Shown here piece after piece: positions 3,007 to 19,874 of a DNA stretch of 23,314 bases (positions within the stretch are counted from its first letter, which is position 1; each line of letters begins with the position of its first letter). The stretch lies in IMG/VR virus record IMGVR_UViG_2537561930_000016; one strand, written 5' to 3'. This DNA is from a virus (lineage: Duplodnaviria > Heunggongvirae > Uroviricota > Caudoviricetes). Below the pieces are notes generated by a model that was not told the origin of the DNA, searched no databases, and saw only the letters and a program-made list of their open reading frames with translations. The position numbers and the translations under genes are program-made.

Positions 3007-3015
3007 TCAACTCAC

Positions 3016-3034
3016 GGCGGGCATCATGCCCGCC
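3016..3034. other. Perfect 19-bp palindrome GGCGGGCAT-C-ATGCCCGCC in N-M intergenic spacer
   Basis: Direct reading of sequence; no T-run follows. Possible RNA hairpin or protein-binding site. Confidence 0.5.
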
Positions 3035-3051
3035 TGTAACGGAGAGAAAAA

Positions 3052-3852: not shown

Positions 3853-3867
3853 CGACTGACCCCGTCA

Positions 3868-3939
3868 GCGGGCGGCGTGCGCGGTGTTCCGGTTTGACTC
3901 CGTGACCGTTTACACCGCGCACCCACCGCCCGATTTTTT
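3868..3939 (+). terminator. Long imperfect GC-rich hairpin followed by TTTTTT between M and L; possible intra-operon terminator/attenuator
   Basis: Left arm GCGGGCGGCGTGCGCGGTG and right arm CACCGCGCACCCACCGCCCG, then GATTTTTTC at 3932..3940. Read directly from sequence. Confidence 0.4.
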
Positions 3940-3953
3940 CAGGAGTGAACCCC

Positions 3954-4448
3954 ATGAGTATGGTTGCCAGAACCAACCCCGGACCCGCAGAGGACGACAT
4001 CACCGATACCGATGATGGTGATACCCGTATTTCAGCGGGCGCATTCTGGCCGGATATTGTGCTGCGTGAGCTGCGTCTGGCGGTACGACTGCCGGGCCGT
4101 GTGACCACCTCCCGCCTGCTGCATACCGCCACCGGGGCGGTGGCACACGTTACCCGCGAGCTGGAAGCATGGCAGCAGGAACAGCAGGCGGCTGGCCATC
4201 AGACGCTGGCCGATGTTCCGGCACCCGTAATTAACGGAGAAAGCCTCAATCTCTGGCACTGGCGCAATGCGGTTTATACCGCCACGCGCGCCCTGATTCT
4301 GGAGCGTTACCGCGATGCGGACACAACGGATAAGGGCGACCGCCGGGCGGACGCACTGGATATACAGACATCGGATTTGTGGCGCGATGTGAGCTGGGCC
4401 ATCTCTGACATTCTGCGCCGCCCGCGAATTTTTGCGGAGCTGTGCTGA
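3954..4448 (+). CDS. L: Head completion/stabilisation protein gpL-like
   Basis: ORF 3945..4448; preferred start ATG 3954 (AGGAG RBS 9 nt upstream). P2 order position after M; motifs such as LADVPA and DxLWRDxxWAI resemble gpL. Confidence 0.8.
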   Translation: MSMVARTNPGPAEDDITDTDDGDTRISAGAFWPDIVLRELRLAVRLPGRVTTSRLLHTATGAVAHVTRELEAWQQEQQAAGHQTLADVPAPVINGESLNLWHWRNAVYTATRALILERYRDADTTDKGDRRADALDIQTSDLWRDVSWAISDILRRPRIFAELC

Positions 4449-4648
4449 TGAAAGTGAAGGCACTGGAAGGCGACACCGTGGATTCGCTCTGTTTCCGGTA
4501 CTACGGCACGACGCAGGGCGTCACCGAAAAGGTGCTGGATGCCAACCCCGGACTCTGTCAGCAGGTATTTCTGGACGCCGGGCAGGACGTGGAGATGCCG
4601 GAGCCGGAGAAGAAGAAACGAGAAATGATTCAGTTGTGGGGGGAGTAG
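4448..4648 (+). CDS. X: Tail protein gpX-like (small LysM-like protein)
   Basis: ATG 4448 overlaps the L stop (TGATG). MKVKALEGDTVDSLCFRYYGTTQGVTEKVLDANPGL resembles P2 gpX (MK.FALQGDTLDAIC.RYYG...). Confidence 0.75.
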   Translation: MKVKALEGDTVDSLCFRYYGTTQGVTEKVLDANPGLCQQVFLDAGQDVEMPEPEKKKREMIQLWGE

Positions 4649-4650
4649 CA

Positions 4651-4974
4651 GTGAGCACCATTCAAACAGGGATCACAGAGCAGGTTATTGCGTGGCTCTT
4701 TGACCACCTGCCAACGGTGTATGCAGTAGGCGCGGCAGTCAGCATTTCCGCGCTGATGAGTCTTTATGACGGACGAACACTGGTTCAGACCGTAACGGGA
4801 TCGCTGGCGTGCGGCGTTCTTGCCATGGCCGTGGCCGGGTCGTTGCGCTTCTTCGGGTTTCCTGAAGATGCCGTGACGTTTATCGGCGCATCAATCGGTT
4901 TTATGGGCGCAGAGAAAGCACGCGACAAGGTTATTGCGGCCTTTAATCGCAGGGTGAAGGAGAAGGACGAATGA
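4651..4974 (+). CDS. Putative holin (about 3 hydrophobic segments, charged C-terminus)
   Basis: GTG 4651 is in frame with ORF 4432..4974 and starts immediately after the X stop. Hydrophobic stretches VIAWLF...AVGAAVSISALM, SLACGVLAMAVAGSL, FIGASIGFMGA, then EKARDKVIAAFNRRVKEKDE. Sits directly upstream of the endolysin. Confidence 0.6.
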   Translation: MSTIQTGITEQVIAWLFDHLPTVYAVGAAVSISALMSLYDGRTLVQTVTGSLACGVLAMAVAGSLRFFGFPEDAVTFIGASIGFMGAEKARDKVIAAFNRRVKEKDE

Positions 4975-5363
4975 GCAACACATTTAAATTCAGCAGCCGG
5001 AGCGAAAAGAATTTGCAGGGCGTAAATCCTGATCTGGTGAAAGTGACCCGACGGGCACTGGAAATTTCGGAAGTGGATTTTGGTATCACTGAAGGGTTGC
5101 GCAGCCGTTACCGCCAGAAGCAACTTGTGGCCACAGGTAAGAGCCAGACCATGAACAGTCGCCACCTTACGGGACATGCCGTGGATGTTGTGGCTTATAT
5201 CGGCAGCCAGGTGTCATGGGAATGGCCGCTGTACGAAAAAATCGCAGCAGCATTCAGACAGGCCAGCCGGGAGCTGAATATTCCGGTGGAATGGGGCGGC
5301 GACTGGAAGACCCTGAAAGACGGACCGCATTTTCAGTTACCACACGGAGCCTATCCGGCATGA
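4971..5363 (+). CDS. Endolysin, peptidase M15 family (zinc D,D- or L,D-peptidase type)
   Basis: 130-aa ORF with GGAGAAGGA RBS; ATG overlaps the holin stop. Candidate H..D..H zinc-ligand pattern (SRHLTGHAVDVV ... PHFQLPHG) typical of M15 phage endolysins. Confidence 0.75.
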   Translation: MSNTFKFSSRSEKNLQGVNPDLVKVTRRALEISEVDFGITEGLRSRYRQKQLVATGKSQTMNSRHLTGHAVDVVAYIGSQVSWEWPLYEKIAAAFRQASRELNIPVEWGGDWKTLKDGPHFQLPHGAYPA

Positions 5364-5767
5364 AGCTCTGGCCCACGCTGGGTGTCGCTTTCCTTCTGAT
5401 TGCCGCATGGGGAACATCCATGCGTCTGTCATGGTCGCTGGGCCGGGAGAACGCCAGAAACGAAGCGCAGGCTAGCACCCTGAAACGTACCGCCGACACC
5501 CTGAATATCATCAGCGCCGAGGTACAGGATATGCAGCAGGTGCTGGCGCAACTCCGCGTGGAAAATCAGCAACGCAATCAGGACGGAGAGGCAAGACGTG
5601 AACAGCTACGCAACGACATTGCAAAAGATGAATGCGCCCACGCTTTGCCTGACGCTCGTTTTACTGACAGGCTGCGCAGGCACGCAGAACGCGCCACGGC
5701 CAGCGCCGTCAGTCCGGCTTATACCGCAGACGCTGACCATACCGGTAACGCCTCCCCCCTTCCCTGA
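5360..5767 (+). CDS. i-spanin (Rz-like inner membrane spanin)
   Basis: ATG 5360 overlaps the endolysin stop (ATGA). N-terminal TM segment MKLWPTLGVAFLLIAAWG, then charged coiled-coil-like region; o-spanin gene embedded in another frame. Confidence 0.65.
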   Translation: MKLWPTLGVAFLLIAAWGTSMRLSWSLGRENARNEAQASTLKRTADTLNIISAEVQDMQQVLAQLRVENQQRNQDGEARREQLRNDIAKDECAHALPDARFTDRLRRHAERATASAVSPAYTADADHTGNASPLP

Positions 5768-5918
5768 CACTCCCACATGGGGAAATCTCGGTATATGGGG
5801 CGACCGCCTTCTGGATGCACTGGAAACCTGTAACGCGGATAAACGGGCCATTGAATTACTGGAACAGCGCAGGCTGCAACGACTGAACAACGAGGACAAC
5901 AACCATGCTGAAAACTGA
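5628..5918 (+). CDS. o-spanin (Rz1-like outer membrane lipoprotein), overlapped architecture
   Basis: Inside ORF 5598..5918: MNAPTLCLTLVLLTGCAG has a lipobox LTGC; Pro-rich mature region. Starts within the i-spanin gene and extends past it. Confidence 0.6.
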   Translation: MNAPTLCLTLVLLTGCAGTQNAPRPAPSVRLIPQTLTIPVTPPPFPDTPTWGNLGIWGDRLLDALETCNADKRAIELLEQRRLQRLNNEDNNHAEN

Positions 5919-6372
5919 TTCCCTGCGTGAAGCCATGACCCGTTCATGCCGATGGTGTCAGGCCAACCCGGAAAAATTCACCATTTTCGTGGAGAGCGGC
6001 AACATTGAAACGACCGGAGAAACGCCCTCGTTTGTTTACCGCTATCAGATGGTGATGTTTGTCATGGATTACGCCGGGGAGCTGGACGACCTCACGCTGC
6101 CGCTGCTGGCGTGGTTATCCGAAAATCAGCCACAGTTGTTGCTCAATCCGGAGCGTAATCAGGACATCAAATTCTCCGCCGTTATCAATGACGATGACAG
6201 CGCCGATCTCCTGTTTACGCTCCCTCTGCGGGAACGCGTTCGCATCACGCGCAGCAGTCAGGGGACACCGCAGGCAGAACACCTGCCGGAGCCAAAACCC
6301 CGCCTGCCATCTTCCGAAGGCGACTGGTCGCATGTATTCCAGGATGTGACGTGGGGTGAAAGCGATGGATAA
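5905..6372 (+). CDS. R: Tail completion protein gpR-like
   Basis: 155-aa ORF MLKTDSLREAMT...; resembles P2 gpR (MLKPDSLR...), same length and position. Confidence 0.8.
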   Translation: MLKTDSLREAMTRSCRWCQANPEKFTIFVESGNIETTGETPSFVYRYQMVMFVMDYAGELDDLTLPLLAWLSENQPQLLLNPERNQDIKFSAVINDDDSADLLFTLPLRERVRITRSSQGTPQAEHLPEPKPRLPSSEGDWSHVFQDVTWGESDG

Positions 6373-7000
6373 GGCATTCACCCGCGTGGATGAAACCTTT
6401 GAGGCCATCCGCGACAGCCTGAATCAGCAGGCCATCAATAACATCGCCAGAAAGCTGGCACAGGATTTACGCCGCGCCCAGCAGGCGCGTATCCGGTCAC
6501 AGAAAGCGCCGGACGGGACCGCGTGGACACCACGCAGACGCCGCGTAACCCGGATACAGGAACGCATTCGCTTTATCTGGAATAACGAAGCACGCACGCT
6601 GAAAAACTGGCATCACGACACGGGGAAATACGGGCGAACCATTACCGGGTGGGATGAGGATAAAAACAATATCCGCACGTTTTACCGGGATGACATCGAC
6701 CGTTTTCTGGAAATACGCACCCGGCGCATCAACCAGGACAGCACAAAGCGCGTCCCCATGTTCGTAAAACTGCGCACCGCCCGCTACCTGAAAGCCCGTG
6801 CAGATGCTTCCGGTGTGACGGTGGGTTACAGCGGCGTGGCCGCACGTATTGCCCGCGTTCATCAGTTCGGTGAGCGCGATCAGGTTGCGCCGGGCATTTT
6901 CACCGATTACCCGGTACGTGAGCTGTTGGGCATCAGCCAGGCAGATGAACGCCTGATTTATAACACGGTGCTGGGCCGGATTGCGGAGGCTGTACGGTGA
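6365..7000 (+). CDS. S: Tail completion / virion morphogenesis protein gpS-like (longer than P2 gpS)
   Basis: ORF 6356..7000; ATG 6365 preferred. N-terminus (ARKLAQDLRRAQQARIRSQKAPDGTAW) and C-terminus (IARVHQFGERD...LLGIS..DE) resemble P2 gpS; the central part appears extra. Confidence 0.7.
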   Translation: MDKAFTRVDETFEAIRDSLNQQAINNIARKLAQDLRRAQQARIRSQKAPDGTAWTPRRRRVTRIQERIRFIWNNEARTLKNWHHDTGKYGRTITGWDEDKNNIRTFYRDDIDRFLEIRTRRINQDSTKRVPMFVKLRTARYLKARADASGVTVGYSGVAARIARVHQFGERDQVAPGIFTDYPVRELLGISQADERLIYNTVLGRIAEAVR

Positions 7001-7578
7001 GCGCAGAACTCATGCGACTGCTGAGCAACATCATCCGCACCGGGATCATCTCTGAAGTTGATGAGGAATCCTGGTGCGTGCGCGTTCGCAGCGGCGAACT
7101 GGAAACAGGCTGGCTGCGCTGGAACACCACGCGCGCGGGAGCCTTCAATGTGTGGCTGCCGCCATCACCAGGCGAACAGGTGGTAATTGCCTGCATTGGC
7201 GGCAACCCGGAAACCGCCATGATAATTGGCAGCCTGTGGAGTGATGCCAATCCGGCCCCCGGCAAAAGCCTGAAAGAAATCGTGATCAGCGCGCCGGATG
7301 GCGCGGTGTTCCGCTACGACGCGGACGCAGGCGCACTGAGCGCCAGCGGCATGAAAACGGCCACTTTACAGGCATCCGTCAGCGTGACACTGGACACGCC
7401 CGTCGTGGAATGCACAAACCTTCTGAGAACAGCGACGCTTGACGTCACAAAAGGAGGAAAGATGAGCGGCAATATCACGCACAGCGGCGGCAACTTCACC
7501 TCAAACGACATTACCGTGCATACGCATAAACACGGTGGCGTGAAAGGCGGCAGCGATTCGACAGGAGGCCCGCAGTGA
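6997..7578 (+). CDS. V: Baseplate spike/assembly protein gpV-like
   Basis: GTG 6997 overlaps the S stop (alternative ATG 7012). IRTGIISEVD, VHTHKHGGVKGGSDSTGGP resemble P2 gpV. Confidence 0.8.
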   Translation: MSAELMRLLSNIIRTGIISEVDEESWCVRVRSGELETGWLRWNTTRAGAFNVWLPPSPGEQVVIACIGGNPETAMIIGSLWSDANPAPGKSLKEIVISAPDGAVFRYDADAGALSASGMKTATLQASVSVTLDTPVVECTNLLRTATLDVTKGGKMSGNITHSGGNFTSNDITVHTHKHGGVKGGSDSTGGPQ

Positions 7579-7925
7579 CAACCCGCTACACAGGAATGAA
7601 TCCGGACGGGACGGGAAACCTGAACGATATGGAGCACCTGAAACAGTCAGTCAGGGATATCCTGACCACCCCGCTGGCAAGCCGGGTTATGCGACGGGAA
7701 TATGGCAGCCTTGTGCCTGATTTGATTGACGAACCCATGAATAACACCACGCGTCTGCAATGCATGAGTGCTGCCGTGATTGCGCTGACACGATGGGAAC
7801 CCCGCATTGCCCTGGATGCCATCGACGTTGTCTGGAAAGCGGGAGGCCGCGCCGGGGTGACGCTGTCGGGCACTGTCATGCAGACCATGCAGAATGTTGA
7901 ATTAACCATCACGCTGAGGGAGTAA
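7575..7925 (+). CDS. W: Baseplate wedge protein gpW-like
   Basis: GTG start overlapping the V stop, AGGAGG RBS. MTTRYTGMN...SRVMRREYGS resembles P2 gpW. Confidence 0.85.
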   Translation: MTTRYTGMNPDGTGNLNDMEHLKQSVRDILTTPLASRVMRREYGSLVPDLIDEPMNNTTRLQCMSAAVIALTRWEPRIALDAIDVVWKAGGRAGVTLSGTVMQTMQNVELTITLRE

Positions 7926-7927
7926 TC

Positions 7928-8824
7928 ATGCCCGCCGTTGACCTTTCACAGTTACCGGACCCCGCCATCATCGCGGAGCCTGACTTTGAGGCAATTCTGG
8001 CTGACACAAAGGCCATGATGATTGCGGCTTATCCCGCCGAACAGCGTGAAGCCGTTTCCGCCGCGCTGGAGCTGGAATCGGAACCCCTTAACGTTATCGC
8101 TCAAACCATGTCGTTTCGTGAAATGCTGTTACGCCAGCGGGTTAACGAGGGGGCACGCGCCTGCATGTTAAGCCACAGCGCCGGGACAGACCTGGACAAC
8201 CTCGCGGGCAATATGAACACAAAGCGCCTGGTTATCACTCCGGCAACGGATACCACCGACGCGGTGATGGAGAGCGACACCTCGCTGAGACTGCGGGCGC
8301 AGCGGGCGTACGACGGCCTGAGTGTTGCTGGCCCGTCAGGTGCATACGAGTATTTTGCCCGCAGCGCCAGCGGTCTGGTGCGTGATGTGCGGGCTATCAG
8401 TCCGTCTCCGGCAAATGTGACGGTTTCCATCCTGTCCACTGAAGGCGACGGCACGGCAACGGAGGCGTTGCTTAATACCGTTCGCGCCGTTCTGAATGCA
8501 GAGGATACCCGCCCGGTGGCCGACCGCCTGACCGTACAGAGCGCCAGCATCGTGACATGGCGGCTGAATGCAAAACTGTACTTTTACCCCGGCCCGGAAT
8601 CCGAACCTATTCTGGCCGCGGCGGAATCGTCGTTCAGGAAGTGGCTGGCTGAACAGGGGCTTATCGGTCAGGACGTGGCGTTGTCCGCCATTGCTGCCGC
8701 ACTTCATGTACACGGCGTGCAACGCGTGGAGATAATCGAACCCACACAGAATATGGCCATCAGTGACATACAGGCGGCGCGCTGTGAGTCGTTCACCATC
8801 AGCGAAGGTGGGCGTAATGAGTAA
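7928..8824 (+). CDS. J: Baseplate assembly protein gpJ-like
   Basis: 298-aa ORF starting 2 nt after the W stop; size and position match P2 gpJ. Confidence 0.8.
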   Translation: MPAVDLSQLPDPAIIAEPDFEAILADTKAMMIAAYPAEQREAVSAALELESEPLNVIAQTMSFREMLLRQRVNEGARACMLSHSAGTDLDNLAGNMNTKRLVITPATDTTDAVMESDTSLRLRAQRAYDGLSVAGPSGAYEYFARSASGLVRDVRAISPSPANVTVSILSTEGDGTATEALLNTVRAVLNAEDTRPVADRLTVQSASIVTWRLNAKLYFYPGPESEPILAAAESSFRKWLAEQGLIGQDVALSAIAAALHVHGVQRVEIIEPTQNMAISDIQAARCESFTISEGGRNE

Positions 8825-9347
8825 TTCACTGTTACCGCCATCAGCCAGCAATTTCATGCGTTATGCCGAAGCTGTCGGAACGCGCATTACAGACATCCCG
8901 GTAGACCTCAACACACTGTGGTCGCCGGATACCTGCCCGGTGCATCTGCTGCCTTATCTCGCCTGGGCATTTTCCGTTGACCGCTGGGATCGCAACTGGC
9001 CGGAAGAGACAAAGCGACAGGTTATTCGTGATGCATGGCTGATACACCGACACAAAGGGACCATCAGCGCACTGCGCAGGGCCATTGAACCACTGGGATA
9101 CCTCATTCGCGTGTCTGAGTGGTGGGAGTTCGGAGGAAAACCGGGAACATTTACCGTTGAAGTCGGCACACTGGACAGTGGTGTGACGGAGGAAATGTAT
9201 CTGGAAATGGAGCGGTTGATTGCTGATGCCCGTCCGGTCAGCCGCCACATGACAGGGCTGAATATCATTCAGGAAATTCCGGGGGATATTTTCGCAGCGG
9301 CGGCAACTTATGACGGTGAAGTTATTACCATTTATCCAGGCGATTAA
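8817..9347 (+). CDS. I: Baseplate/tail protein gpI-like
   Basis: ATG 8817 inside ORF 8763..9347, overlapping the J stop; 176 aa, same as P2 gpI length as I recall; position before tail fibre gene. Confidence 0.75.
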   Translation: MSNSLLPPSASNFMRYAEAVGTRITDIPVDLNTLWSPDTCPVHLLPYLAWAFSVDRWDRNWPEETKRQVIRDAWLIHRHKGTISALRRAIEPLGYLIRVSEWWEFGGKPGTFTVEVGTLDSGVTEEMYLEMERLIADARPVSRHMTGLNIIQEIPGDIFAAAATYDGEVITIYPGD

Positions 9348-9349
9348 GT

Positions 9350-11644
9350 ATGAGTACCACAACACGAAAATTTAAAACCGTTATCACCGATACGGGTGCC
9401 AAAAAATTAGCTCAGGCAGCCGCGCCAGATGGTAAGCCTGTTCGCCTGACTCATATGGCCGTGGGCGACGGTGGCGGCACGTTGCCCACACCAGACAGTA
9501 AGCAGACCCGTCTGGTGCATGAGGTGTGGCGACACACTGTTAATCGCGTCATCCTGGACGCAACACATCAGAACCGCATTATTGCGGAGCTGCTTATTCC
9601 TCCTGAAACGGGCGGATTCTGGATCCGGGAAATTGGTGTGTTTGATGAGAACGGCGATTTGATCGCGGTGGGCAATACTGCCGAAAGTTACAAGCCAATC
9701 GTTGCCGAAGGGTCCGGACGTGCACAAACATTTCGCACCATTCTGACCGTATCCAGCACTGCCACCGTGGCGCTTACCGTGAATAACACCATGGTGATGG
9801 CCACAGTGGATTACGTGGATGACAAACTGAAAGAGCATGAACAGTCACGACGTCACCCGGACGCCTCGCTGACCGCAAAAGGCTTTGTTCAACTCAGTAG
9901 CGCCACTAACAGCGTGTCTGAAACGCAGGCTGCAACGCCGAAAGCGGTTAAGGCCGCGTATGATCTTGCTAACGGAAAATATACTGCGCAGGATGCCAGC
10001 ACGACGCGAAAAGGCCTTGTCCAGCTCAGTAGCGCCACCAACAGCACGTCTGAAACGCAGGCTGCAACGCCGAAAGCAGTAAAGGCCGCGTATGACCTTG
10101 CTAACGCAAAATATACCGCTCAGGACGCCACGACAGCACAAAAAGGGATTGTCCAGCTCAGTAGTGCCACCAACAGCACGTCTGAAACACTGGCCGCGAC
10201 ATCGAAAGCGGTTAAGGCGGTAATGGATGAAACGAACAAGAAAGCGCCCTTAAACAGTCCTGTGTTGACCGGAACGCCAACAACGCCAACTGCGCGACAG
10301 GGAACGAATAATACCCAAATCGCAAGCACGGCTTTCGTTATGGCTGCAATTGCCGCCCTTGTAGATTCGTCACCTGATGCACTGAACACGCTGAACGAGC
10401 TGGCTGCGGCGCTGGGCAACGACCCGAATTTTGCGACCACCATGACTAACGCGCTTGCGGGTAAGCAACCGAAAGATGCCACCCTGACGGCGCTGGCCGG
10501 GCTTGCTACTGCGGCAGACAAGTTTCCGTATTTTACGGGGAATGATGTCGCCAGCCTGGCAACTCTGACAAAAATCGGGCGGGATATTCTTGCGAAATCG
10601 ACCGTTGCCGCCGTTATCGAATACCTCGGTTTACAGGAAACGGTAAACAGGGCTGGTAACGCCGTGCAAAAAAATGGCGATACCTTGTCCGGTGGGCTTA
10701 CTTTTGAAAATGACTCAATCCTTGCCTGGATTCGAAATACTGACTGGGTGAAGATTGGATTTAAAAATGATGCCGATGGTGACACTGATTCATACATGTG
10801 GTTTGAGACAGGCGACAACGGCAATGAATATTTCAAATGGAGAAGCAAACAAAGTACCACAACAAAAGACCTGATGAATCTTAAATGGGATGCTTTGTAT
10901 GTTCTTGTCAATGCCATTGTAAATGGCGAAGTCATATCAAAATCAGCAAACGGCCTACGTATTGCTTATGGTAATTACGGATTCTTTATTCGTAATGATG
11001 GTTCAAATACATACTTCATGTTGACAAACTCCGGTGACAACATGGGGACTTATAACGGATTAAGGCCATTATGGATTAATAACGCTACTGGCGCTGTTTC
11101 GATGGGGCGTGGCCTTAATGTTTCAGGGGAGACACTTTCAGACCGTTTTGCTATTAACAGCAGTAATGGTATGTGGATTCAGATGCGCGATAACAACGCT
11201 ATCTTTGGGAAAAATATAGTTAACACTGATAGCGCTCAGGCGTTGCTTCGCCAGAATCACGCCGACCGCAAGTTCATGATAGGTGGACTGGGGAACAAGC
11301 AATTTGGCATCTACATGATTAATAATTCAAGGACAACCAATGGCACCGATGGTCAGGCGTACATGGATAATAACGGAAACTGGCTTTGCGGTGCGCAAGT
11401 TATTCCCGGCAACTATGGCAATTTTGATTCCAGATATGTGAAAGATGTTCGACTTGGTTCACAGCAATATTATGGAGTGAACAACTGGCAAACATGGAAT
11501 TTCCAGTGCCCGTCAGGTCATGTATTGTCTGGTATTAATGTTCAGGATACAGGGTCCAACTCTGCCGATAATATAGCGGGCGTTTATTACAGACCCGTTC
11601 AAAAGTATATAAATGGCACCTGGTATAATGTAGCGAGCGTTTAA
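9350..11644 (+). CDS. H: Tail fibre protein gpH-like (current orientation): constant N-terminal part ~9350..10627 fused to variable C-terminal domain 10628..11644
   Basis: 764-aa ORF. N-terminus [26 protein letters not shown]...MAVGDGGG resembles P2 H. Internal gix-like site at 10614..10639. C-terminus ends [11 protein letters not shown], paralleling the alternative cassette. Confidence 0.9.
9878..10230 (+). repeat. In-frame tandem repeat, 132-bp unit x ~2.7 (44-aa motif [40 protein letters not shown])
   Basis: Repeat units start at 9878, 10010 and 10142 (period 132), seen directly in DNA and protein. Causes spurious antisense ORFs 9845..10141 and 9885..10082. Confidence 0.8.
10614..10639. 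other. gix/pix-like 26-bp invertase crossover site (left), inside H coding sequence: TTATCGAATACCTCGGTTTACAGGAA
   Basis: Near-identical to the Mu gix sequence as I recall it (TTATCCAAAACCTCGGTTTACAGGAA). Inverted copy at 13434..13459 shares the 12-bp core ACCTCGGTTTAC and central TC dinucleotide. Confidence 0.8.
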
Positions 11645-11645
11645 T

Positions 11646-12173
11646 ATGATGCACTTAAAGAACATTAAAGCGGATAACGCTAAAACACTTGAGCAGTACG
11701 AATTAACAAAGAAACACGGAGTTATCTGGCTTTACTCTGAGGACGGAAAAAACTGGTATGAGGAAGTGAAAAACTTTCAGCCAGACACAATAAAGATTGT
11801 TTACGATGAAAATAATATTATTGTCGCTATCACCAAGGATGCCTCTACGCTTAACCCTGAAGGCTTTAGCGTCGTTGAGGTTCCCGATATAACAGCCAAT
11901 CGTCGTGCCGATGATTCAGGGAAGTGGATGTTTAAGGACGGAGCTGTGGTTAAACGGATTTATACGGCTGACGAACAGCAACAACAGGCCGAATCACAAA
12001 AGGCCGCGTTACTTTCCGAAGCAGAAAGCGTTATTCAGCCACTGGAACGCGCTGTCAGGCTGAATATGGCGACGGATGAGGAGCGCGCACGACTGGAGTC
12101 ATGGGAACGCTACAGTGTTCTGGTCAGCCGTGTGGATACGGCAAATCCTGAATGGCCACAAAAGCCTGAATAA
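11646..12173 (+). CDS. G: Tail fibre assembly chaperone (gpG/Tfa-like), orientation-A copy
   Basis: 175-aa ORF starting 2 nt after H stop; [14 protein letters not shown]...[13 protein letters not shown]...FQPDT motifs of the P2 G/Mu U tfa family. Confidence 0.85.
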
Positions 12174-12178
12174 AAATT

Positions 12179-12198
12179 AAGGCCCGCTATCGGGCCTT
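12179..12198. terminator. Hairpin AAGGCCCG-CTAT-CGGGCCTT between convergent tfa genes (probable bidirectional terminator)
   Basis: Perfect 8-bp GC-rich stem; A-run upstream on plus strand (a T-run for minus-strand transcripts). Confidence 0.5.
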
Positions 12199-12201
12199 GT
12201 C

Positions 12202-12735
12202 TCATTCAGGTTGTTCGGGAAATGTTACTGGCAGGCTGGAGGTGTCTGTAGATTCGACTTTCTGCGCATAGAGCATCCACTCGGTTAATTTTTGTTTATT
12301 CTCGTCGGAAATGATGCCCAGCCGTAGCTGTGAGTCCCATAGCTGGGTTTTATCCCTGACGAGCTGTAGCAGGCTTTGCTTTTCATTTTCCGCCTGCTGC
12401 CTCTGCTCTTCCTCGGTATAAGTTCGCTTTACCACTACGTCATCTTTGAACATCCATCTACCCGAAATGTCAGCACGGCGATTTGCTGTAATATCAGGTA
12501 ATTCAACGACGCTTGCGCCTTCCGGATTAATTGCTGAAACATCCTTTTCAATACAAATAATAACGCCGTTATGGTCATAGACCATTTTCAAAGTGTCTGG
12601 CTGGAAATTCTTTTGTTCCTCATACCAGTTTTTTCCATCCTCTGAATAAAGCCATTTGATGTTAAATTGTTTCGTTAGCTGGTATTGCTCTTTTGTTTTA
12701 GGGTTGCCAGCAGTAATGTTTTTTAAGTGCATCAT
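12202..12735 (-). CDS. Tail fibre assembly chaperone, alternative (orientation-B) copy
   Basis: 177-aa minus-strand [43 protein letters not shown]..., paralogous to the 11646..12173 product and convergent with it. Confidence 0.85.
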   Translation of the reverse strand: MMHLKNITAGNPKTKEQYQLTKQFNIKWLYSEDGKNWYEEQKNFQPDTLKMVYDHNGVIICIEKDVSAINPEGASVVELPDITANRRADISGRWMFKDDVVVKRTYTEEEQRQQAENEKQSLLQLVRDKTQLWDSQLRLGIISDENKQKLTEWMLYAQKVESTDTSSLPVTFPEQPE

Positions 12736-12737
12736 CG

Positions 12738-13451
12738 TTAAATACTCCCCGCGTTATACCACGTCCCATTAATGCAATACTGAATTGGCCTTGCCTGAGT
12801 TGTATCAATTAATTCATCACGGTTTCCGTTAACTGAACCCGTAACGACATAACCTGACCTGTCAGACCAGCCGGGACCATTCCATGTCTGAACAGATGAC
12901 AGACCGCCAAGGCGAATACCTGTAATAAACCTTGAGTTACATTCTGCCCGCGTATATGCACCAACATCTCCCGCTGAAGGTTTTCGTGTCGTGGTATAGA
13001 AATCTGACCAACCTAATTCAAACCCATAACCATCACGAGCCGACCTGTAGGAAATGCCACCATTTTTATAATTCACACGGAATTGTACGGCAGGACAGCT
13101 ACCAGCATTTATATTAAAGTGAAGAATTAATGCAGATGCACCACCAATCAGGGCGTTATATGCACCACTATCCCAATTCCATCCAACGGATGTATCACCA
13201 TTAACAGTATTACCTGTTTGTCGGAGTGCAAATGCATTGACATTTTTGGCACTAATTGAAATATCGCTAGAACCATCAAAACCAACTCCAGCAATTTTTC
13301 GTGCTGTTTTCAGCTTTGTTGCAGTAGCGGCATTGCCGGACAGTTCCCCAGAAAGGCCACCGCTGAATGTTTGTCGATTGGTCCAGGTATTCGCTGTACT
13401 GAGTAACGGTATTTTCTCCCCGCTTGTGCCGAGTTCTCGTAAACCGAGGTT
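12738..13451 (-). CDS. Alternative tail-fibre C-terminal cassette (promoterless, no start codon; expressed only after inversion fuses it to the constant part of H)
   Basis: Minus-strand frame open from just after TAA (13454..13452) to stop at 12738. Hand translation ...LGLRELGTSGEKIPLLSTANTWTNRQTFSGGLSGELSGNAATATKLKTARKIAGVGFDGS...INGTWYNAGSI; shares LGL crossover codons and C-terminal INGTWYN motif with H. ORF track shows only the last 112 aa (from internal GTG). Confidence 0.75.
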   Translation of the reverse strand, partial: NLGLRELGTSGEKIPLLSTANTWTNRQTFSGGLSGELSGNAATATKLKTARKIAGVGFDGSSDISISAKNVNAFALRQTGNTVNGDTSVGWNWDSGAYNALIGGASALILHFNINAGSCPAVQFRVNYKNGGISYRSARDGYGFELGWSDFYTTTRKPSAGDVGAYTRAECNSRFITGIRLGGLSSVQTWNGPGWSDRSGYVVTGSVNGNRDELIDTTQARPIQYCINGTWYNAGSI

Positions 13452-13459
13452 TTAAATAA
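13434..13459. other. gix/pix-like 26-bp invertase crossover site (right), inverted relative to left site: TTCTCGTAAACCGAGGTTTTAAATAA
   Basis: Reverse complement TTATTTAAAACCTCGGTTTACGAGAA matches the left site at about 21 of 26 positions including the 12-bp core; lies 55 bp upstream of the invertase start. Confidence 0.8.
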
Positions 13460-13513
13460 TGGCCGTTTCTGGCCTGCATGGCATGATTTGTGCTTTTGGA
13501 CGGGAGATTCAGT

Positions 13514-14113
13514 GTGCTGATTGGCTATGTAAGGGTATCAACAAATGACCAGAATACAGACCTGCAACGAAACGCTCTTGTTTGTGCAGGATGTGAACAA
13601 ATATTTGAAGATAAATTAAGCGGGACAAAGACAGACCGACCGGGATTAAAACGCGCTTTAAAGCGCCTTCAAAAAGGTGACACGCTGGTTGTCTGGAAAC
13701 TGGATCGCCTCGGGCGAAGCATGAAACATCTGATTTCTCTCGTCGGGGAACTACGGGAGCGAGGGATTAATTTTCGCAGTCTGACCGACAGCATAGACAC
13801 ATCTTCTCCAATGGGGCGTTTTTTCTTCCACGTGATGGGTGCCCTGGCTGAAATGGAACGTGAATTAATTGTTGAACGTACACTGGCCGGGCTGGCGGCA
13901 GCGCGCGCAAGGGGGCGCACAGGCGGACGTCGACCGAAGCTGACAAAAGAACAGCATGAGCAAATAGCAAGGCTAATCAAAAACGGGCACGACAGAAAAC
14001 AACTGGCAATAATTTACGGCATTGGCACATCGACGATTTATCGTTATCACCCTGTAGGCGATATACAGACTGAAGAAACAACCGGGCAGACTCAGGAAAA
14101 TGAAAACCGCTAA
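13514..14113 (+). CDS. pin: Serine DNA invertase, Hin/Gin/Pin/Cin family
   Basis: ORF 13490..14113; probable start GTG 13514 giving (M)LIGYVRVSTNDQNTDLQRNAL...LVVWKLDRLGRSMKHL...GRRPKL..., which I recognise as the conserved N-terminal catalytic region (VRVSTxxQ, active-site Ser) and C-terminal HTH of this family, very close to e14 Pin as I recall. Symbol is tentative (could be a Fin/Gin-type orthologue). Confidence 0.9.
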   Translation: MLIGYVRVSTNDQNTDLQRNALVCAGCEQIFEDKLSGTKTDRPGLKRALKRLQKGDTLVVWKLDRLGRSMKHLISLVGELRERGINFRSLTDSIDTSSPMGRFFFHVMGALAEMERELIVERTLAGLAAARARGRTGGRRPKLTKEQHEQIARLIKNGHDRKQLAIIYGIGTSTIYRYHPVGDIQTEETTGQTQENENR

Positions 14114-14132
14114 TCTGACCATTAGCGGTTTT
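14103..14132. terminator. Bidirectional rho-independent terminator between convergent invertase and gpU genes
   Basis: AAAACCGCTAAT-CTGACC-ATTAGCGGTTTT: perfect 12-bp stem, 6-nt loop, flanked by A-run and T-run; overlaps the invertase stop codon. Confidence 0.65.
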
Positions 14133-14141
14133 TGTGTTAAA

Positions 14142-14636
14142 TCAGAACAGCCCTTTAACTGAACTGGCCACGCTGTTAAGAGATGATGTCACCTTATCTT
14201 TGAAGCCGGACAGCATATCACTGAACGATGAGGATTGCAGGCGCTCCCGCAAATCCTCATCACAGCGTTCAAGAGTCAGTGAAAATTCTATCTTTTTCGC
14301 CTTACCGTAGCGATCAAACTCGGAGCGGGTCGTATTCGTTTCAGTCAGGACATACATGCCGTAAATCTGCCCGACGCCATCAATCAAAGGCCAGGGTCGT
14401 CCTGTATACGCCTGCGTGGTCAGCAGCGACAGCGACACTTCGCCACCTGTAATTTCAGGATAAAGCACACCAGAAAGAACGATGCGATCATCACCTGCAC
14501 CGATATACTGCCAGCTTGCTGAACGGTTAACGCGTTCATTTTTCACATGCCGCCAGCTTTTGTTTTGCTGTAACTGCTGATGCGGCAGCGTGCGCAGCTC
14601 AAAAACAAACATGCCGTAGATCATCATCATGGCCAT
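14142..14636 (-). CDS. U: Tail protein gpU-like
   Basis: 164-aa minus-strand ORF immediately downstream of the tape measure gene; size and position match P2 gpU. Confidence 0.75.
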   Translation of the reverse strand: MAMMMIYGMFVFELRTLPHQQLQQNKSWRHVKNERVNRSASWQYIGAGDDRIVLSGVLYPEITGGEVSLSLLTTQAYTGRPWPLIDGVGQIYGMYVLTETNTTRSEFDRYGKAKKIEFSLTLERCDEDLRERLQSSSFSDMLSGFKDKVTSSLNSVASSVKGLF

Positions 14637-14642
14637 GACTCC

Positions 14643-17486
14643 TCAATCTTTATCGTAAAAACTGCCACGCCCGGCACGAGCGCGCCGTTCCATTTCTGCC
14701 CTGACCATTTCACCGACCAGTTTGGCCAGTTCGCGGGGATTCTGTGTAACAACGTTATGCAGATGAACATGAATTTCACCGCCAAATCCGGAGGCAACAG
14801 GCTCCCGGTTACGGGAAGTTGCAGGAACTGATGCCACTGGCGATCGTATGGCCTCTGCCACCGGGCGGGAGCTGGCCGCAACAACAGGGATCAGCGCCGG
14901 AGGCAGCGGAGCCGGAACCACAGGTGTGATATTAATTGCGGGAGCAGGCTTACTGACCTGCGCAATCTTCCGCTCCTGCCACTCCCCACGAACGGCAAGT
15001 GCGCGGGGCAGGTTCTTAAAGACAATATCGCCGGGGCCAATACGTTTTTTCGTCTCATCAACCAGCTTACCTGTGTTATCAGCAATTTTGCTGAGTCTGC
15101 GTAGCGTACCGGTATTGCTGTCTGTGAGCGGTTTGTTGTCTTTGGGTTTATCACCTCCGGTGCCATTGCCATTTTCCACAGGCTTCGGCGGATTGATTTT
15201 CGCCAGGTCCCCCTGAAGCAAGGCAACCTTGTCCTGAAGAATGGCCGCACGCTGTGCGTCTTCGATTTTCTTGCGCGCCCTTTCCGCTTCATCCGGAAGC
15301 ACACCGAGCTTTTCAAGTATCCACGCCAGCGTATCCAGCAACATTTTTGCAGGTGTCAGAACAAGTTGTAACGCACCGCCAAGAACGTTACCGAATATCT
15401 CGCCAGCACTGGTACATTTATCCAGCGTTTCCTTGCTGGACTCCATCGGTGACAGCAGCGATTTAAACCAGTTAAAGACCTGAATAATCCCATCACGCAC
15501 GACATCAAAAACAGGACCGAACCGTTCAAAGGTTTCGCGCAACGGAGCCAGCCGTTCCATAATCCCACTGAACACCCCGGCATAAAACGCCTTGATGGGT
15601 TCCCAATATTTCCAGATGAGAACCGCCGCAGCCACAAACGCAGCAACAATCAATCCAACCGGACTGAACAGCGCCCCGATAGCGCCTCCCAATAAAGAAA
15701 CGGAACCCGTCACCATTCCCCATAGTGCTGGCAGGACCCTGACAGCATTCATTGATCCGGTCAGGAGAGAAAAACCAAGACGCAGTTTTGCCAGCGGGCC
15801 AGCAAGCACACCAATAGCCAGCGACAACGAGCCAACCGTTGCAGTCATTGCCAGCAACGCACCGCCTGCTATCAGTAGCTGGCGCGTCAGTGCGGGATGG
15901 GCCTGCGCCAGCGCCGTCACCTTTGAGACCACCCGCGTGAGCCACTGCGTGACAGAACGCAGCGGACCGTCAATCAGATCTGCAATGCGGATGCGCAGCC
16001 CTTCCCATGCACTGCTGAGTGATTTCAGATCGCCGTCAAGGTTGTTGGCCATAACCTTTGCCGTGCGTTCAGCCTCACCGCGCGCGCCTTCAAGTTCTTT
16101 TCTCAGTTTGGGCAGGGAACCGTCACCTGCCGCATCAACGAGCGCCATAAATGATGTGAAAGCCTCTTCTCCGGCAATGTCCTTAAAGAACGATACCCGG
16201 TCAACTTCCCCGTATTTGCGGGTGGCTTTATAAAGGTCGGCCAGCACATCCTCCATCGGGCGCATTTTGCCGTTCGCGTCAGAGACTGCCACACCAAGCT
16301 CTTTCAGCGCCTCTGCTGCTGCCTTTGGCGGTGATGCCAGACGAGCTAGGCTGGCACGCATTGCCGTCCCGGCATCACTCCCTCTGATACCCATATTCGC
16401 CAGCACGCCCGCCATCGCTGCGGCCTGCTCCAGCGATATTCCCAGCTTACCTGCCACCGGACCTGCATATTTCATGGTTTCGCCCAGTGCGCGAAGGTCA
16501 GTGTTGGTACGGGTAAACGCTGCAGTGAGTGTGTCACCGACCCGGTCCATCTGGTCAGCAGAAAGGCCGAACTGCGTCAGGATATTTGAGCCAATATCTG
16601 CCGTCTCGCCGAGATCCATACCGCCAGCCGTTGCCATGCTCAGCACGCCGGGAAGCGCAGCCTGAATGGCCTGCGGAGTGAAGCCAGCCATTGCAAGAAA
16701 TGCCTGTCCACTGGCGGCATCGCCTGCGGTGAACTGCGTTTCAGAGCCAAGTTTTAACGCCTGCTCACGCAGCGCCTTAAACTGCGGGCTGTTCTGGTCG
16801 ATTCGCGTCAGTGCCTGAACGCGGGACATCTCTTTGCCGAACCCGATCGCAGGCTGCAAAAAACGCCCGGCAGCATAGCCGCCAGCCGCTGCCGCACCAG
16901 TTGCCAGTGCACCACCTGTTTTCAGTTTTCCCGCTGTTTCCTGCGCGCGCGAATACCGCTCACGCGCCCGCGTTACACGCGCAAGCGCCTGCCGTTCGCG
17001 TTCAAGCTGGTTGTTGTACTGTTCGCTGCGTCTGATGGCCTGCTGGATGGTGTTATCGCTGCCTGTCAGGGAAATGCCGTGGCGTTTCAGCTCTCCGCCA
17101 AGCTCCCGCATTTTCTGAATTTCCCGCGTGCGCGATTCATTCAGGCGTTCAAGCCGGGTGCTTAACTGCTGCATCAGCTTTTGTTGTTTTTCGCTGAGCA
17201 CTGTACCCGTGCGTTGTAACTGATTAAGGGCGTTAAGCTGGCGTCGCGCTTTCACGATGCCCGCATCCGCTTTACTGACAGCGTCGCGGGCGCGCTCAAA
17301 TGAACGCGCCTGACGCTCGAGATTTTTGATCGCCCCCTGCGTTCGCTGGATGGAGTCACCAAACTGCCCCATCAGGCGGCGGGCGTTTTCGGCAGGTCGG
17401 GTCAGCCTGTCAACGGCGCTGAAAGCGACCCGGATATCAAGAGTCTTCATTGTCTGCATTCCCGCTGCGAAGTGCCGCCCGCTCAC
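14643..17486 (-). CDS. T: Tail tape measure protein gpT-like
   Basis: 947-aa minus-strand ORF; long coiled-coil N-terminal region, central Gly/Ala-rich hydrophobic segments, position after E/E'. Confidence 0.85.
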   Translation of the reverse strand: MSGRHFAAGMQTMKTLDIRVAFSAVDRLTRPAENARRLMGQFGDSIQRTQGAIKNLERQARSFERARDAVSKADAGIVKARRQLNALNQLQRTGTVLSEKQQKLMQQLSTRLERLNESRTREIQKMRELGGELKRHGISLTGSDNTIQQAIRRSEQYNNQLERERQALARVTRARERYSRAQETAGKLKTGGALATGAAAAGGYAAGRFLQPAIGFGKEMSRVQALTRIDQNSPQFKALREQALKLGSETQFTAGDAASGQAFLAMAGFTPQAIQAALPGVLSMATAGGMDLGETADIGSNILTQFGLSADQMDRVGDTLTAAFTRTNTDLRALGETMKYAGPVAGKLGISLEQAAAMAGVLANMGIRGSDAGTAMRASLARLASPPKAAAEALKELGVAVSDANGKMRPMEDVLADLYKATRKYGEVDRVSFFKDIAGEEAFTSFMALVDAAGDGSLPKLRKELEGARGEAERTAKVMANNLDGDLKSLSSAWEGLRIRIADLIDGPLRSVTQWLTRVVSKVTALAQAHPALTRQLLIAGGALLAMTATVGSLSLAIGVLAGPLAKLRLGFSLLTGSMNAVRVLPALWGMVTGSVSLLGGAIGALFSPVGLIVAAFVAAAVLIWKYWEPIKAFYAGVFSGIMERLAPLRETFERFGPVFDVVRDGIIQVFNWFKSLLSPMESSKETLDKCTSAGEIFGNVLGGALQLVLTPAKMLLDTLAWILEKLGVLPDEAERARKKIEDAQRAAILQDKVALLQGDLAKINPPKPVENGNGTGGDKPKDNKPLTDSNTGTLRRLSKIADNTGKLVDETKKRIGPGDIVFKNLPRALAVRGEWQERKIAQVSKPAPAINITPVVPAPLPPALIPVVAASSRPVAEAIRSPVASVPATSRNREPVASGFGGEIHVHLHNVVTQNPRELAKLVGEMVRAEMERRARAGRGSFYDKD

Positions 17487-17655
17487 GCCAGCTAACCACT
17501 TCGCCGGGCGTCATCATGAAGATTTCGGCGGGCGACCAGTTAAAAATAACGGCAATATCTGCCACAAAGTCTTCTATGTGCTCAAAGCACACAACCGTGA
17601 TCAGGCTTCCGTCGCCTGTTCGTTCTTCCCGCCAGAGTCCGCACCGCTCAAAAAA
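17437..17655 (-). CDS. E' extension frame of tail assembly chaperone (expressed as E+E' fusion by -1 programmed frameshift)
   Basis: ORF 17437..17673 is in the -1 frame relative to E and overlaps its 3' end; slippery heptamer T_TTT_TTG at 17655..17649 lies in the overlap; frame ends inside the start of T. Confidence 0.65.
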   Translation of the reverse strand, partial: FFERCGLWREERTGDGSLITVVCFEHIEDFVADIAVIFNWSPAEIFMMTPGEVVSWRERAALRSGNADNEDS

Positions 17656-17966
17656 TTTACGGCAACCACACATAACTGAATAAAGTCACGGGATGCCATT
17701 TTTTTGATCGTCACTTCATCCAGTCGCGGTGATGTCACGCGTGACAGCAGCGTAAACATGGATTCCGCTTTCAGATTCAGCACATCAGACAGCGACAAAT
17801 TTCGCAGAGATCCAGCCTGCTCAATAGCTCCGGTGATCTCCACATACGTGATTTTTTCGCCGCCTCGCTCAATTGGTTGGGTAAGTTTTACGCCACGCTC
17901 ACTGGTTTCTTTCACAGTGTCAGCAACTACCGTGTTTTCGGTATCGATGTTTTTCGTCTCTTTCAT
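17601..17966 (-). CDS. E: Tail assembly chaperone gpE-like
   Basis: 121-aa minus-strand ORF with AAGGAG RBS, between tail tube and tape measure genes, with overlapping -1 frame E'. Confidence 0.75.
   Translation of the reverse strand: MKETKNIDTENTVVADTVKETSERGVKLTQPIERGGEKITYVEITGAIEQAGSLRNLSLSDVLNLKAESMFTLLSRVTSPRLDEVTIKKMASRDFIQLCVVAVNFLSGADSGGKNEQATEA
17649..17655 (-). other. -1 programmed ribosomal frameshift slippery site TTTTTTG (E to E')
   Basis: Minus-strand sequence AAA-T TTT TTG-AGC in E zero frame (..VNFLS..); same heptamer type as the P2 E/E' and lambda G/GT sites. Confidence 0.65.
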
Positions 17967-18020
17967 CAGGAAACTCCTTTCAGTCAGAGGCGACGCACTG
18001 CGCCGCCTGCATATTACTTA

Positions 18021-18533
18021 TCAGCCAAGCCCAAGCGCGGAACGGATACGGTCAGGCACAATGTCCTTGCCGTCCTTCCGGTAGATGTGGTTCAACAGGT
18101 CGATTTCCCACAGCGGGCGATCGTTAACGCTCAGCTTGTAGTAGGTGTTTTTGACAGCGTAAGTGTGTGATGTGGCTTCGCCCTGTTTGGCTTCCCCCAT
18201 ATCAATTTCCGTCACACGTCCGCGCATCTCGATTTCATACAGATCGCTTTCTGCATCGGTGTAGTATTCACCCGCAAAACGCAGCAGCGTGCCGTCAATC
18301 GTGCCGCCATACTTAAGGAACAGCTCACGAACTGCGCCCCCCATGACAAAACTCGCATCAAGCGCGGAGTCGTCCAGACCGAGATCAATACTTACCGCCC
18401 CCATCATGCCACCACCACGATAGCTGTCGGTTTTGCGCGTCAGTTTGGGCGGCGTGACGGATGTCACTTTACCCACTTCGTTTTCACCATCCACAAACAA
18501 CGTAAAAAAGCGAAGATGTTTTGGTACAGCCAT
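18021..18533 (-). CDS. FII: Tail tube protein gpFII-like
   Basis: 170-aa ORF MAVPKHLRFFTLFVDGENEVGKVTSVTPPKLTRKTDSYRGGGMMG...; resembles P2 FII (..VTLPKLTRK...YRGAGM..). Start shares one base with the FI stop. Confidence 0.85.
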   Translation of the reverse strand: MAVPKHLRFFTLFVDGENEVGKVTSVTPPKLTRKTDSYRGGGMMGAVSIDLGLDDSALDASFVMGGAVRELFLKYGGTIDGTLLRFAGEYYTDAESDLYEIEMRGRVTEIDMGEAKQGEATSHTYAVKNTYYKLSVNDRPLWEIDLLNHIYRKDGKDIVPDRIRSALGLG

Positions 18534-19717: not shown

Positions 19718-19874
19718 AGCTTCAGCCCCTTGTATCCGTTAAATGATTCAGCAACAATCATCACCCACCACGCGCGTAATCTCACCCCTGCGCTATTCTC
19801 CCGTCACGGCGACAACAAAAAGCAGTAACCCACTCCGCACGCACATGCGACCATGCCGCACAGGGAGGGAACAG
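19718..19874. promoter_or_regulatory. Divergent intergenic region between sheath gene FI (minus) and gpD (plus); presumed promoter(s)
   Basis: 157-bp non-coding spacer between divergent genes; GGGAGGGA RBS precedes ATG 19875. No exact TGT-N12-ACA found. Confidence 0.3.

Follow-up and report, generated by a model that had tools for sequence, protein, structure and literature searches.

The tail-fibre region of a P88-like (Xuanwuvirus) P2-family E. coli prophage very probably harbours a copy of the G segment of phage Mu, a Gin-type invertible segment that is active. It lies within a stretch of 23,314 nucleotides, referred to here as the window, in which the recombination sites, the reading frame, the gene content and the homology to Mu can be read directly, and a set of invertase and sites identical to that of the window has inverted in nature. 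The switch gives the prophage a choice between two tail-fibre tips and, with them, probably between two sets of hosts. It is real, but ordinary and already known: the arrangement has been annotated in P88, P884B11, phiSM, UTI89 and more than 200 complete E. coli genomes. The mechanism has been in textbooks ever since Mu, P1 and Salmonella Hin were studied, and no new principle is involved here.

Architecture of the invertible segment

The segment and its flanks comprise the following features, given in window coordinates:

9350..10624, plus strand: constant N-terminal part of the fibre gene H (ORF 9350-11644), codons 1-425, outside the invertible segment
10614-10639, no strand: left, gixL-like recombination site within the coding part of H, with the crossover core TC at 10626-10627
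10625..11644, plus strand: variable fibre C-terminus, Sv-like, in the expressed orientation, 339 aa from L426
11646..12173, plus strand: tail-fibre assembly chaperone of the expressed tip, homologue of Mu U and P2 G, 175 aa
12179..12198, no strand: GC-rich hairpin between the convergent chaperone genes
12202..12735, minus strand: alternative chaperone, homologue of Mu U', silent here, 177 aa
12738..13448, minus strand: alternative fibre C-terminus, Sv'-like, start-less and silent here, 236 aa plus stop
13434-13459, no strand: right, gixR-like recombination site, with the core GA at 13446-13447 and a gap of 54 bp to the start of the invertase downstream
13514..14113, plus strand: serine DNA invertase, 199 aa with a GTG start, Gin-type catalytic domain and lineage-specific HTH domain
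13514..13693, plus strand: presumed Fis-dependent recombinational enhancer, comprising the initial 180 nt of the invertase gene and proposed from homology with Mu gin

The constant part of H, which contains the Pfam domain Phage_tail_fib and three Phage_fiber_2 repeats and is 98% identical in nucleotides to P88, is the source of both the promoter-proximal start and the baseplate-attachment domain. As in the G and C segments, the crossover point falls inside the fibre ORF, the constant N-terminal part stays outside, the frame is kept both ways, and two convergent sets of variable domain and chaperone follow, the silent one lacking a start codon and any promoter-like site nearby. A preliminary description of this DNA had likened the arrangement to the Mu G segment, and the proteins bear this out: the Sv-like tip (Pfam Gp34_trimer) has 87.6% amino acid identity to Mu Sv, the expressed-tip chaperone (Pfam Caudo_TAP, E 1.5e-37) 93.1% to Mu U, the alternative chaperone (Caudo_TAP, E 3.6e-36) 96.6% to Mu U', and the last 165 aa of the Sv'-like tip 88.5% to Mu Sv'. 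The Sv'-like tip is also 100% identical in phages 503458 and 520873. Moreover, INGTWYN closes both tips and MMHLKNI opens both chaperones, as had been noticed before. The hairpin between the chaperone genes consists of an 8-bp stem, AAGGCCCG/CGGGCCTT, and then a T-rich tail, and a terminator scan found it terminator-like on the minus strand.

The alternative fibre domain had been described as start-less, and its sequence agrees: the frame is open from 13451 down to 12741, an in-frame TAA stands just before it at 13452-13454, and the first possible start codon comes only 125 codons in. No promoter-like site was found near the silent tip and chaperone set. The codons at the left site in H read TAC CTC GGT TTA CAG and those of the minus-strand frame read TAA AAC CTC GGT TTA CGA, so that the crossover joins the same constant part either to …EYLGL/QETV… in the sequenced orientation or to …LGL/RELG… in the alternative one (the slash marks the end of the shared LGL). 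Flipping the segment in silico yields a single open fibre of 661 aa with no frameshift, compared with 764 aa as sequenced, and this, together with the codon reading, confirms the earlier claim that the phase of CTC GGT TTA is the same at both sites. The lengths then proposed for the exchanged C-termini, 339 and 235 aa, hold for the first; the second is 236 aa counted from the L of LGL. The exact 661-aa fibre was not found in a collection of 15 billion proteins, but this missing match is uninformative, since the native allele is itself known there from one contig only.

Recombination sites

The left site reads TTATCGAATACC-TC-GGTTTACAGGAA and the right site, as the reverse complement of 13434-13459, TTATTTAAAACC-TC-GGTTTACGAGAA. 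They are inverted relative to each other, agree at 21 of 26 positions and have in common the core ACCTCGGTTTAC and the central TC; in each, two half-sites of 12 bp flank an asymmetric 2-bp core that is the same in both, as is typical of invertase sites. Against the Mu gix reference TTATCCAAAACCTCGGTTTACAGGAA, taken from NC_000929, the left site matches at 24/26 positions (two mismatches) and the right site at 22/26 (four mismatches), and each is identical to the corresponding site of the NU14 prophage. Scanning the whole window on both strands gave no third gix-like site within 6 mismatches, and 60 shuffled versions of the window gave no such 26-mer at all. Thus, the earlier description of an inverted 26-bp pair with a central TC, close to Mu gix, stands, as does the shared 12-bp core. 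A degenerate core pattern, AAACCNNGGTTT, allowing one mismatch, also matched the two sites only, but it was dropped because 20 of 100 shuffles gave at least two matches, and the full 26-mer comparison to Mu gix was used in its place.

The number of sites bears on whether the segment could be part of a shufflon-like system that makes more than two fibre variants, as in one EPEC P2-like prophage. Although modules with three sites are known in P2-like prophages (PMC4272514), the window has exactly two gix-like sites, counted on both strands, and two variable domains only, rather than the three or more sites and more than two arrangements of a shufflon, which makes a multi-site system extremely unlikely.

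The invertase and its putative enhancer

A Gin-type invertase had been placed next to the segment, and Pfam (Resolvase, E 1.6e-50; HTH_7, E 4.5e-13), the Gin structures in the PDB (4m6f, E 3e-100; 3uj3, E 1.4e-99) and an alignment with Gin all uphold this. The ORF has its first GTG at 13490, but translation most likely begins at the GTG at 13514 (VLIGYVRVS), in agreement with the annotated start of Mu gin. The protein combines a Resolvase-type catalytic domain, whose nucleophilic serine lies close to the N-terminus, with a C-terminal helix-turn-helix; within residues 1-122 it differs from Gin at only 2 positions (98% identity of the catalytic domain), and Ser9, whose role is documented (PMC3575834), is kept. 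It is identical to WP_000905061.1, the invertase of UTI89, NU14 and EC21Z-048, and to the phiSM invertase.

The DNA-binding domain, on the other hand, is only about 52% identical to that of Gin, a point against an active Gin-type switch. Fis-dependent invertases are set apart from resolvases by Fis-contact residues, namely Q-x-x-R-L in helix 1 of the DNA-binding domain together with basic residues of helix B (PMC3798978); the window's protein has EQIARL amid a C-terminal domain that has diverged elsewhere, and its helix-B region, PGLKRALKRL, is the same as in Gin. A 1985 paper by Kahmann et al., listed in PMC3798978, places the Mu enhancer within the invertase gene in its title. Nucleotides 1-180 of the window's gene match Mu gin at 177/180 positions and nucleotides 1-360 at 341/360, and an enhancer located in the first 180 would therefore be conserved. 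These features suggest that inversion may depend on Fis and on this putative enhancer.

The invertase could be regarded as a natural hybrid, with a catalytic domain 98% Gin and, after about codon 120, a DNA-binding domain found only in P88-like phages, which might confer a site preference unlike that of Gin, Cin and Pin and insulate the switch from other invertases in the same cell. This is a rather unlikely proposal; if true, the variant outer half-sites (TTCTCG and TTATTT) would be co-adapted to the hybrid enzyme.

Inversion in nature

The NU14 and UTI89 prophages, over 10,622 bp, differ solely by an exact inversion, with 0 mismatches after flipping, and the breakpoints lie inside the shared core of the 26-bp sites, with half-sites exchanged exactly. 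The invertase of both is identical to that of the window; the NU14 sites are identical as well, and in UTI89, where the segment is flipped, the same half-sites have changed places. Among 5,426 complete E. coli genomes, 117 hold the segment in the native orientation and 115 in the flipped one, at a required coverage of at least 80%. In EPEC P2-like prophages, flipping has been demonstrated at read level in clonal cultures (PMC4272514); that study concerns another site allele and supports the class rather than the allele of the window.

The breakpoints also bear on whether the repeats are incidental and the inversion is a product of general homologous recombination, acting where the two chaperone genes resemble each other at their 5' ends. 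These ends form a 65-nt, 77% inverted repeat (11646-11710 and 12671-12735), the longest in the region. However, a crossover there would leave the fibre tips unswapped, the NU14/UTI89 breakpoints contradict it, and the match of the sites to gix is far beyond chance. Hence, site-specific inversion is preferred, and the homologous alternative has a negligible probability.

Inversion is recorded for the identical invertase and identical sites of the NU14/UTI89 pair, and by analogy the copy in the window would be expected to flip as well. It might instead be a fossil or locked switch with an intact architecture, either because this copy has stopped flipping or because it sits in a defective prophage, and would then have no consequence for any virion. 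In favour of this, the window is only part of the prophage, and defective relatives exist, as the neighbouring gene D is annotated as truncated by RefSeq in several close ones. Nevertheless, the invertase is full-length and the sites are identical to those of the pair that inverted, the reading frame of D is open in the window, and P88 and phiSM, which are closely related phages, can be induced (PMC5285337, PMC6456863). A locked copy is thus very unlikely, and an active switch remains the preferred explanation.

Proposed mechanism and significance

Invertase dimers would bind both 26-bp sites, while the host protein Fis would bind the enhancer at the 5' end of the invertase gene, and both sites would be cut at the central TC/GA. 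One pair of subunits would then rotate by 180 degrees before religation, leaving bases 10628-13445 inverted. Since the constant part of H, which is not in the segment, would provide the only starts of transcription and translation, only the tip and the chaperone facing it would be made. In the sequenced orientation, this would be the 764-aa fibre with a tip of the P2 H/Mu Sv type and the U-type chaperone, and in the flipped orientation, the 661-aa fibre with an Sv'-type tip as in Mu and the U'-type chaperone. A lysogen population could therefore release two types of virion differing in receptor specificity.

It is well established that Mu G(+) and G(-) differ in host range, and a similar consequence of switching seems likely here. 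In P88, residues 716-746 of the 764-aa fibre, which fall inside the invertible part, determine host range (PMC5285337); the same published host-range study makes no mention of the switch. The switch bears on the engineering of host range in P88-like phages. It is also of practical value for annotation: what RefSeq marks at this place in related genomes as a 'partial tail protein' pseudogene is no pseudogene but the second tip, kept in reserve by a working switch, and the segment may legitimately have different orientations in different assemblies of one strain.

Host phage and cassette slot

The phage belongs to the Xuanwuvirus group (P88-like Peduoviridae), with 96-98% nucleotide identity to P88 across 874-10915 and 13439-20984. 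The cassette had been assigned to a P2-like tail module, at the place where P2 has Z/fun: its slot after the fibre chaperone is as proposed, but the phage itself is not P2 proper and belongs with the P88-like Xuanwuvirus phages. Sister prophages hold other cargo in this slot, and a preprint reports that invertases are common there. The gene order is that of P88 and phiSM, in which H and D lie on one strand and the FI-FII-E-T-U block on the other. The possibility that this minus-strand block reflects a second inversion by the invertase was rejected, since the layout is normal in P88 and phiSM, and no gix-like relic was found at the borders of the FI-to-U block.

Between D and ogr, the window has an extra 1.7-kb insertion with an unannotated cargo gene of 478 aa at 21168-22604, for which searches of Pfam, NCBIfam, PADLOC and the PDB, by sequence or fold, gave nothing specific. 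Four E. coli genomes that share this gene were considered as possible carriers of the flipped switch and turned out not to be: three have other cargo replacing the switch, and the fourth has a P88-type allele in the unflipped orientation.

Comparison with known switches

Close relatives form the P88-like set, which comprises P88, P884B11, Citrobacter phage Shae_phiSM and the prophages of E. coli UTI89, NU14 and EC21Z-048, with backbones 96-99% identical in nucleotides and the cassette in the same position. The sites of phiSM, NU14 and EC21Z-048 are identical to those of the window, whereas P88 differs slightly in the right site and in the C-terminal tail of the invertase. The fibre tips vary within the set, but all these differences are allelic, apart from the extra D-ogr cargo of the window.

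The H and G genes of P2 are 93.5% identical in nucleotides to window positions 10163-12173, and P2 H even has a lone gix-like site (TTATCGAATATCTCGGTTTACAGGAA) at the matching ...EYLGLQE... position. However, a second site, an alternative tip and chaperone and an invertase are all missing, and another gene follows G; thus, P2 cannot switch. The P segment of e14 (Pin) and the invertible segments of EPEC P2-like prophages also swap a fibre C-terminus by means of a Hin-family invertase, but their site allele (AAACCTTGGTTTGGGAGAA-type repeats) and fibre domains differ from those of the window. The C segment of P1 and P7 (Cin) has variable fibre and chaperone genes with 90-93% identical DNA and the same switching logic, within another phage backbone and with another invertase, and the P1 megablast matches (query 1283-3793) stop before the invertase gene.

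The Mu G segment (Gin; also in D108) differs in its constant part, which is Sc (169 aa) instead of a P2-type H (425 aa), in the N-terminal ~71 aa of Sv', in the length of Sv' (319 aa in Mu, 236 aa here), and in the diverged DNA-binding domain of the invertase noted above. Nevertheless, the segment DNA is about 91-93% identical, the gap of 54 bp from the right site to the invertase start and the GTG start are alike, and the gene order, Sc followed by Sv and U, then the convergent U' and Sv', and finally the invertase, is the same.

Gene Layout

According to the ORF list and Pfam matches, the window contains a late-gene region of the P2 family, including the tail-fibre gene H, an invertible segment, and an adjoining invertase gene.

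Genes of the window
up to H, plus strand: capsid, lysis, and baseplate genes
9350-11644, plus strand: tail-fibre gene H, 764 aa
11646-12173, plus strand: fibre chaperone
12202-12735, minus strand: second chaperone
12738-13448, minus strand: fibre fragment without a start codon
13514-14113, plus strand: serine recombinase (invertase), GTG start, 199 aa
14142-19717, minus strand: U, T, E, FII, and FI
19743-20984, plus strand, after FI: D, a 413-aa mechanical ORF
21168-22604, minus strand: cargo gene, 478 aa, sole gene of an insertion between D and ogr

The start of D probably lies later, near 19875 (cf. annotations of 369 aa in EL361 and 366 aa in P88), so that FI and D, which diverge, would be ~157 bp apart; the RefSeq annotation of several relatives has a truncated D of 801 nt. 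The constant part of H carries three tandem 132-nt Phage_fiber_2 repeats (9877-10272; 100/86/63% identity), and their copy number may differ among relatives, since H measures 764 aa in the window and P88, 716 aa in NU14, and 672 aa in phiSM.

Recombination Sites and Reading Frame

The segments 10610-10639 and 13434-13463 form the second-longest inverted repeat found by the repeat finder in the region. The left site reads directly as TTATCGAATACC-TC-GGTTTACAGGAA and the right site, in reverse complement, as TTATTTAAAACC-TC-GGTTTACGAGAA, with 21 of 26 positions identical. Mu gix, the 26-bp Gin recombination site, is TTATCCAAAACCTCGGTTTACAGGAA at both ends of the G segment in the Mu reference genome, and the two sites of the window show 2 and 4 mismatches to it. 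A third gix-like site within 6 mismatches is present on neither strand of the 23 kb window, nor does any occur in 60 shuffled copies of it. The looser core pattern has no significance by itself, so it is the comparison of the full 26-mer that carries the site claim.

H crosses the left site in the codons TAC CTC GGT TTA CAG (…EYLGLQETV…), and the minus-strand frame crosses the right site as TAA AAC CTC GGT TTA CGA (a stop, then NLGLRELG…), remaining open for 237 codons up to the stop at 12738-12740, with its first possible start codon 125 codons in. Inverting 10628-13445 in silico yields a single open fibre of 661 aa, in which 236 new residues follow the 425 constant ones, and the alternative chaperone then begins 2 nt past it. 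Thus, of the exchange of a 339-aa for a 235-aa C-terminus proposed in the preliminary description, the first length holds and the second should be 236. Direct reading also bears out its remark that the two tips share the ending INGTWYN and the two chaperones the start MMHLKNI. The promoter scan returned no sigma-70-like site near the silent set, and a GC-rich hairpin (12179-12198) lies between the two convergent chaperone genes. The exact flipped fibre protein was not found in the protein collection, where the native allele is known from one contig only. RefSeq labels the silent alternative tip fragment (Sv') as a pseudogene, "incomplete, missing N-terminus", and the silent Sv fragment of UTI89 goes under the name of hypothetical protein (comparison loci L001 15389-16099 and L005 6247-6744); both labels are artefacts that the switch causes in annotation.

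Invertase

The mechanical ORF list places the invertase start at GTG 13490; translation from the GTG at 13514, which follows GGGAGA, begins VLIGYVRVS…, precisely as annotated for Mu gin. The resulting 199-aa protein matches solved Gin structures with E values of 3e-100 and 1.4e-99, and residues 1-122 show only 2 differences from Gin, so that conservation extends over the whole catalytic domain and includes Ser9, the nucleophile of Gin (PMC3575834). DNA identity to Mu gin is 95% over nt 1-360 and only 54% over nt 361-540, dropping around codon 120; the gene is a mosaic, with a junction near 13873. The C-terminal DNA-binding domain, ~52% identical to that of Gin, is shared at 93-100% with P88-like phages only, and this diverged domain retains the Q-x-x-R-L patch, a mark of Fis-dependent invertases (PMC3798978). 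The Mu enhancer is located within gin (Kahmann et al. 1985, as cited in PMC3798978), and over its first 180 nt the invertase gene is identical to Mu gin at 177/180 positions; from this it is inferred that the recombinational enhancer has very probably been retained.

Evidence for Inversion

The native 4,764 bases and an in-silico flipped version were compared with 5,426 complete E. coli genomes, counting an arrangement at ≥80% coverage and joining aligned pieces only if they lay on one strand, so that no locus scores in both searches. The native arrangement is present in 117 genomes and the flipped one in 115. The uropathogenic strains NU14 and UTI89 carry prophages whose invertase is identical to that of the window, and both sites of the NU14 prophage are also identical to the window's. 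Over 10,622 bp, the two prophages differ only between the sites, with 0 mismatches once this part is inverted, and their half-sites are exchanged exactly as predicted for crossover at the central dinucleotide. This pair is the cleanest case of inversion by an identical invertase, though not by the window's own copy. In P2-like prophages of EPEC, such segments, with a different site allele, flip within clonal cultures at the read level (PMC4272514). The in-frame Gin-type tail-fibre switch of the preliminary description is confirmed as an observation, and its interpretation is supported by the sites, the frame, homology, and the NU14/UTI89 inversion.

Genomic Setting and Accessory Genes

A prophage of E. 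coli EC21Z-048 matches the window at 98.9% identity over 21 kb. Phage P88 matches it at 96-98% and Citrobacter phage Shae_phiSM at 95-97%, the latter with small replaced stretches (lysin gene, part of the fibre tip) set aside; P88 and Shae_phiSM belong to the genus Xuanwuvirus, Peduoviridae. Unlike in P2, the FI-FII-E-T-U block (14142-19717) lies on the opposite strand to H and D. This layout is normal for Xuanwuvirus, as seen in P88 and phiSM; the gix comparison over the window found no gix-like relics at the borders of the block.

Where the window has the switch, following the fibre chaperone, sister prophages at the ihfA-pheT locus encode a serine O-acetyltransferase (2014C-3011 and EL361, L008/L009 5004-5576) or a family-9 glycosyltransferase (STEC1585, L011 4468-5646); these may be surface-modifying accessory genes. 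According to a preprint, the Z/fun hotspot of P2 often carries invertases. The earlier placement of the cassette where P2 has Z/fun is therefore correct, and it is already documented.

The 1.7-kb insertion between D and ogr (20985-22680) is absent from EC21Z-048, P88, and phiSM; in other genomes, this slot holds DUF2971 or PIN-domain genes. The cargo gene occurs in 4 of the 5,426 E. coli genomes, and neither Pfam nor NCBIfam matches its protein; PADLOC gave no meaningful match, and the only family match is an unannotated PHROG. Hundreds of homologues of the same length, all labelled "hypothetical", are spread across Proteobacteria, including one from Klebsiella in a lambdoid prophage, in a region typical of accessory (moron) genes. 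The protein model consists entirely of helices, its C-terminal alpha-solenoid being modelled with confidence, and the fold matches are all generic. The invariant motif R160-N-D-x-G-x-S-H167 in our reading resembles the HEPN R-x4-6-H signature, and the gene may reasonably be considered a candidate defence gene carried by a phage.

Comparison with Known Systems

By sequence comparison, the invertible segment is the G segment of Mu, with DNA identities of 91-93% to Mu and D108 and of 90-93% to the C segments of P1, P7, and D6. At the protein level, the expressed tip Sv is 87.6% identical to its Mu counterpart, its chaperone U 93.1%, and the alternative chaperone U' 96.6%, and Sv' is 88.5% identical to Mu Sv' over the last 165 residues. 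In the stretch 10500-14100, the constant part of H has a G+C content of ~55%. This drops to 39-47% exactly at the left site and stays in that range through the invertase, which fits an exchanged cassette and gives it a composition foreign to the phage backbone.

The tip and chaperone of the plus orientation share 93.5% DNA identity with the H and G genes of P2. P2 H also contains one gix-like site, TTATCGAATATCTCGGTTTACAGGAA (L007 2952-2977), 1 mismatch from the left site of the window and at the same position (...EYLGLQE...). P2 has neither a partner site nor an invertase and, therefore, its H site represents half a switch.

By homology, the tip as sequenced would be of the P2 H/Mu G(+) type and the flipped one of the Mu G(-) type. 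Mu particles with G(+) and G(-) tips adsorb to different enterobacterial hosts. For P88, a study that makes no mention of the invertase found an altered host range when residues 716-746 of the 764-aa fibre were swapped (PMC5285337). The mechanism of the switch is textbook, and the element is already known, with annotated copies in public genomes of phages and bacteria.
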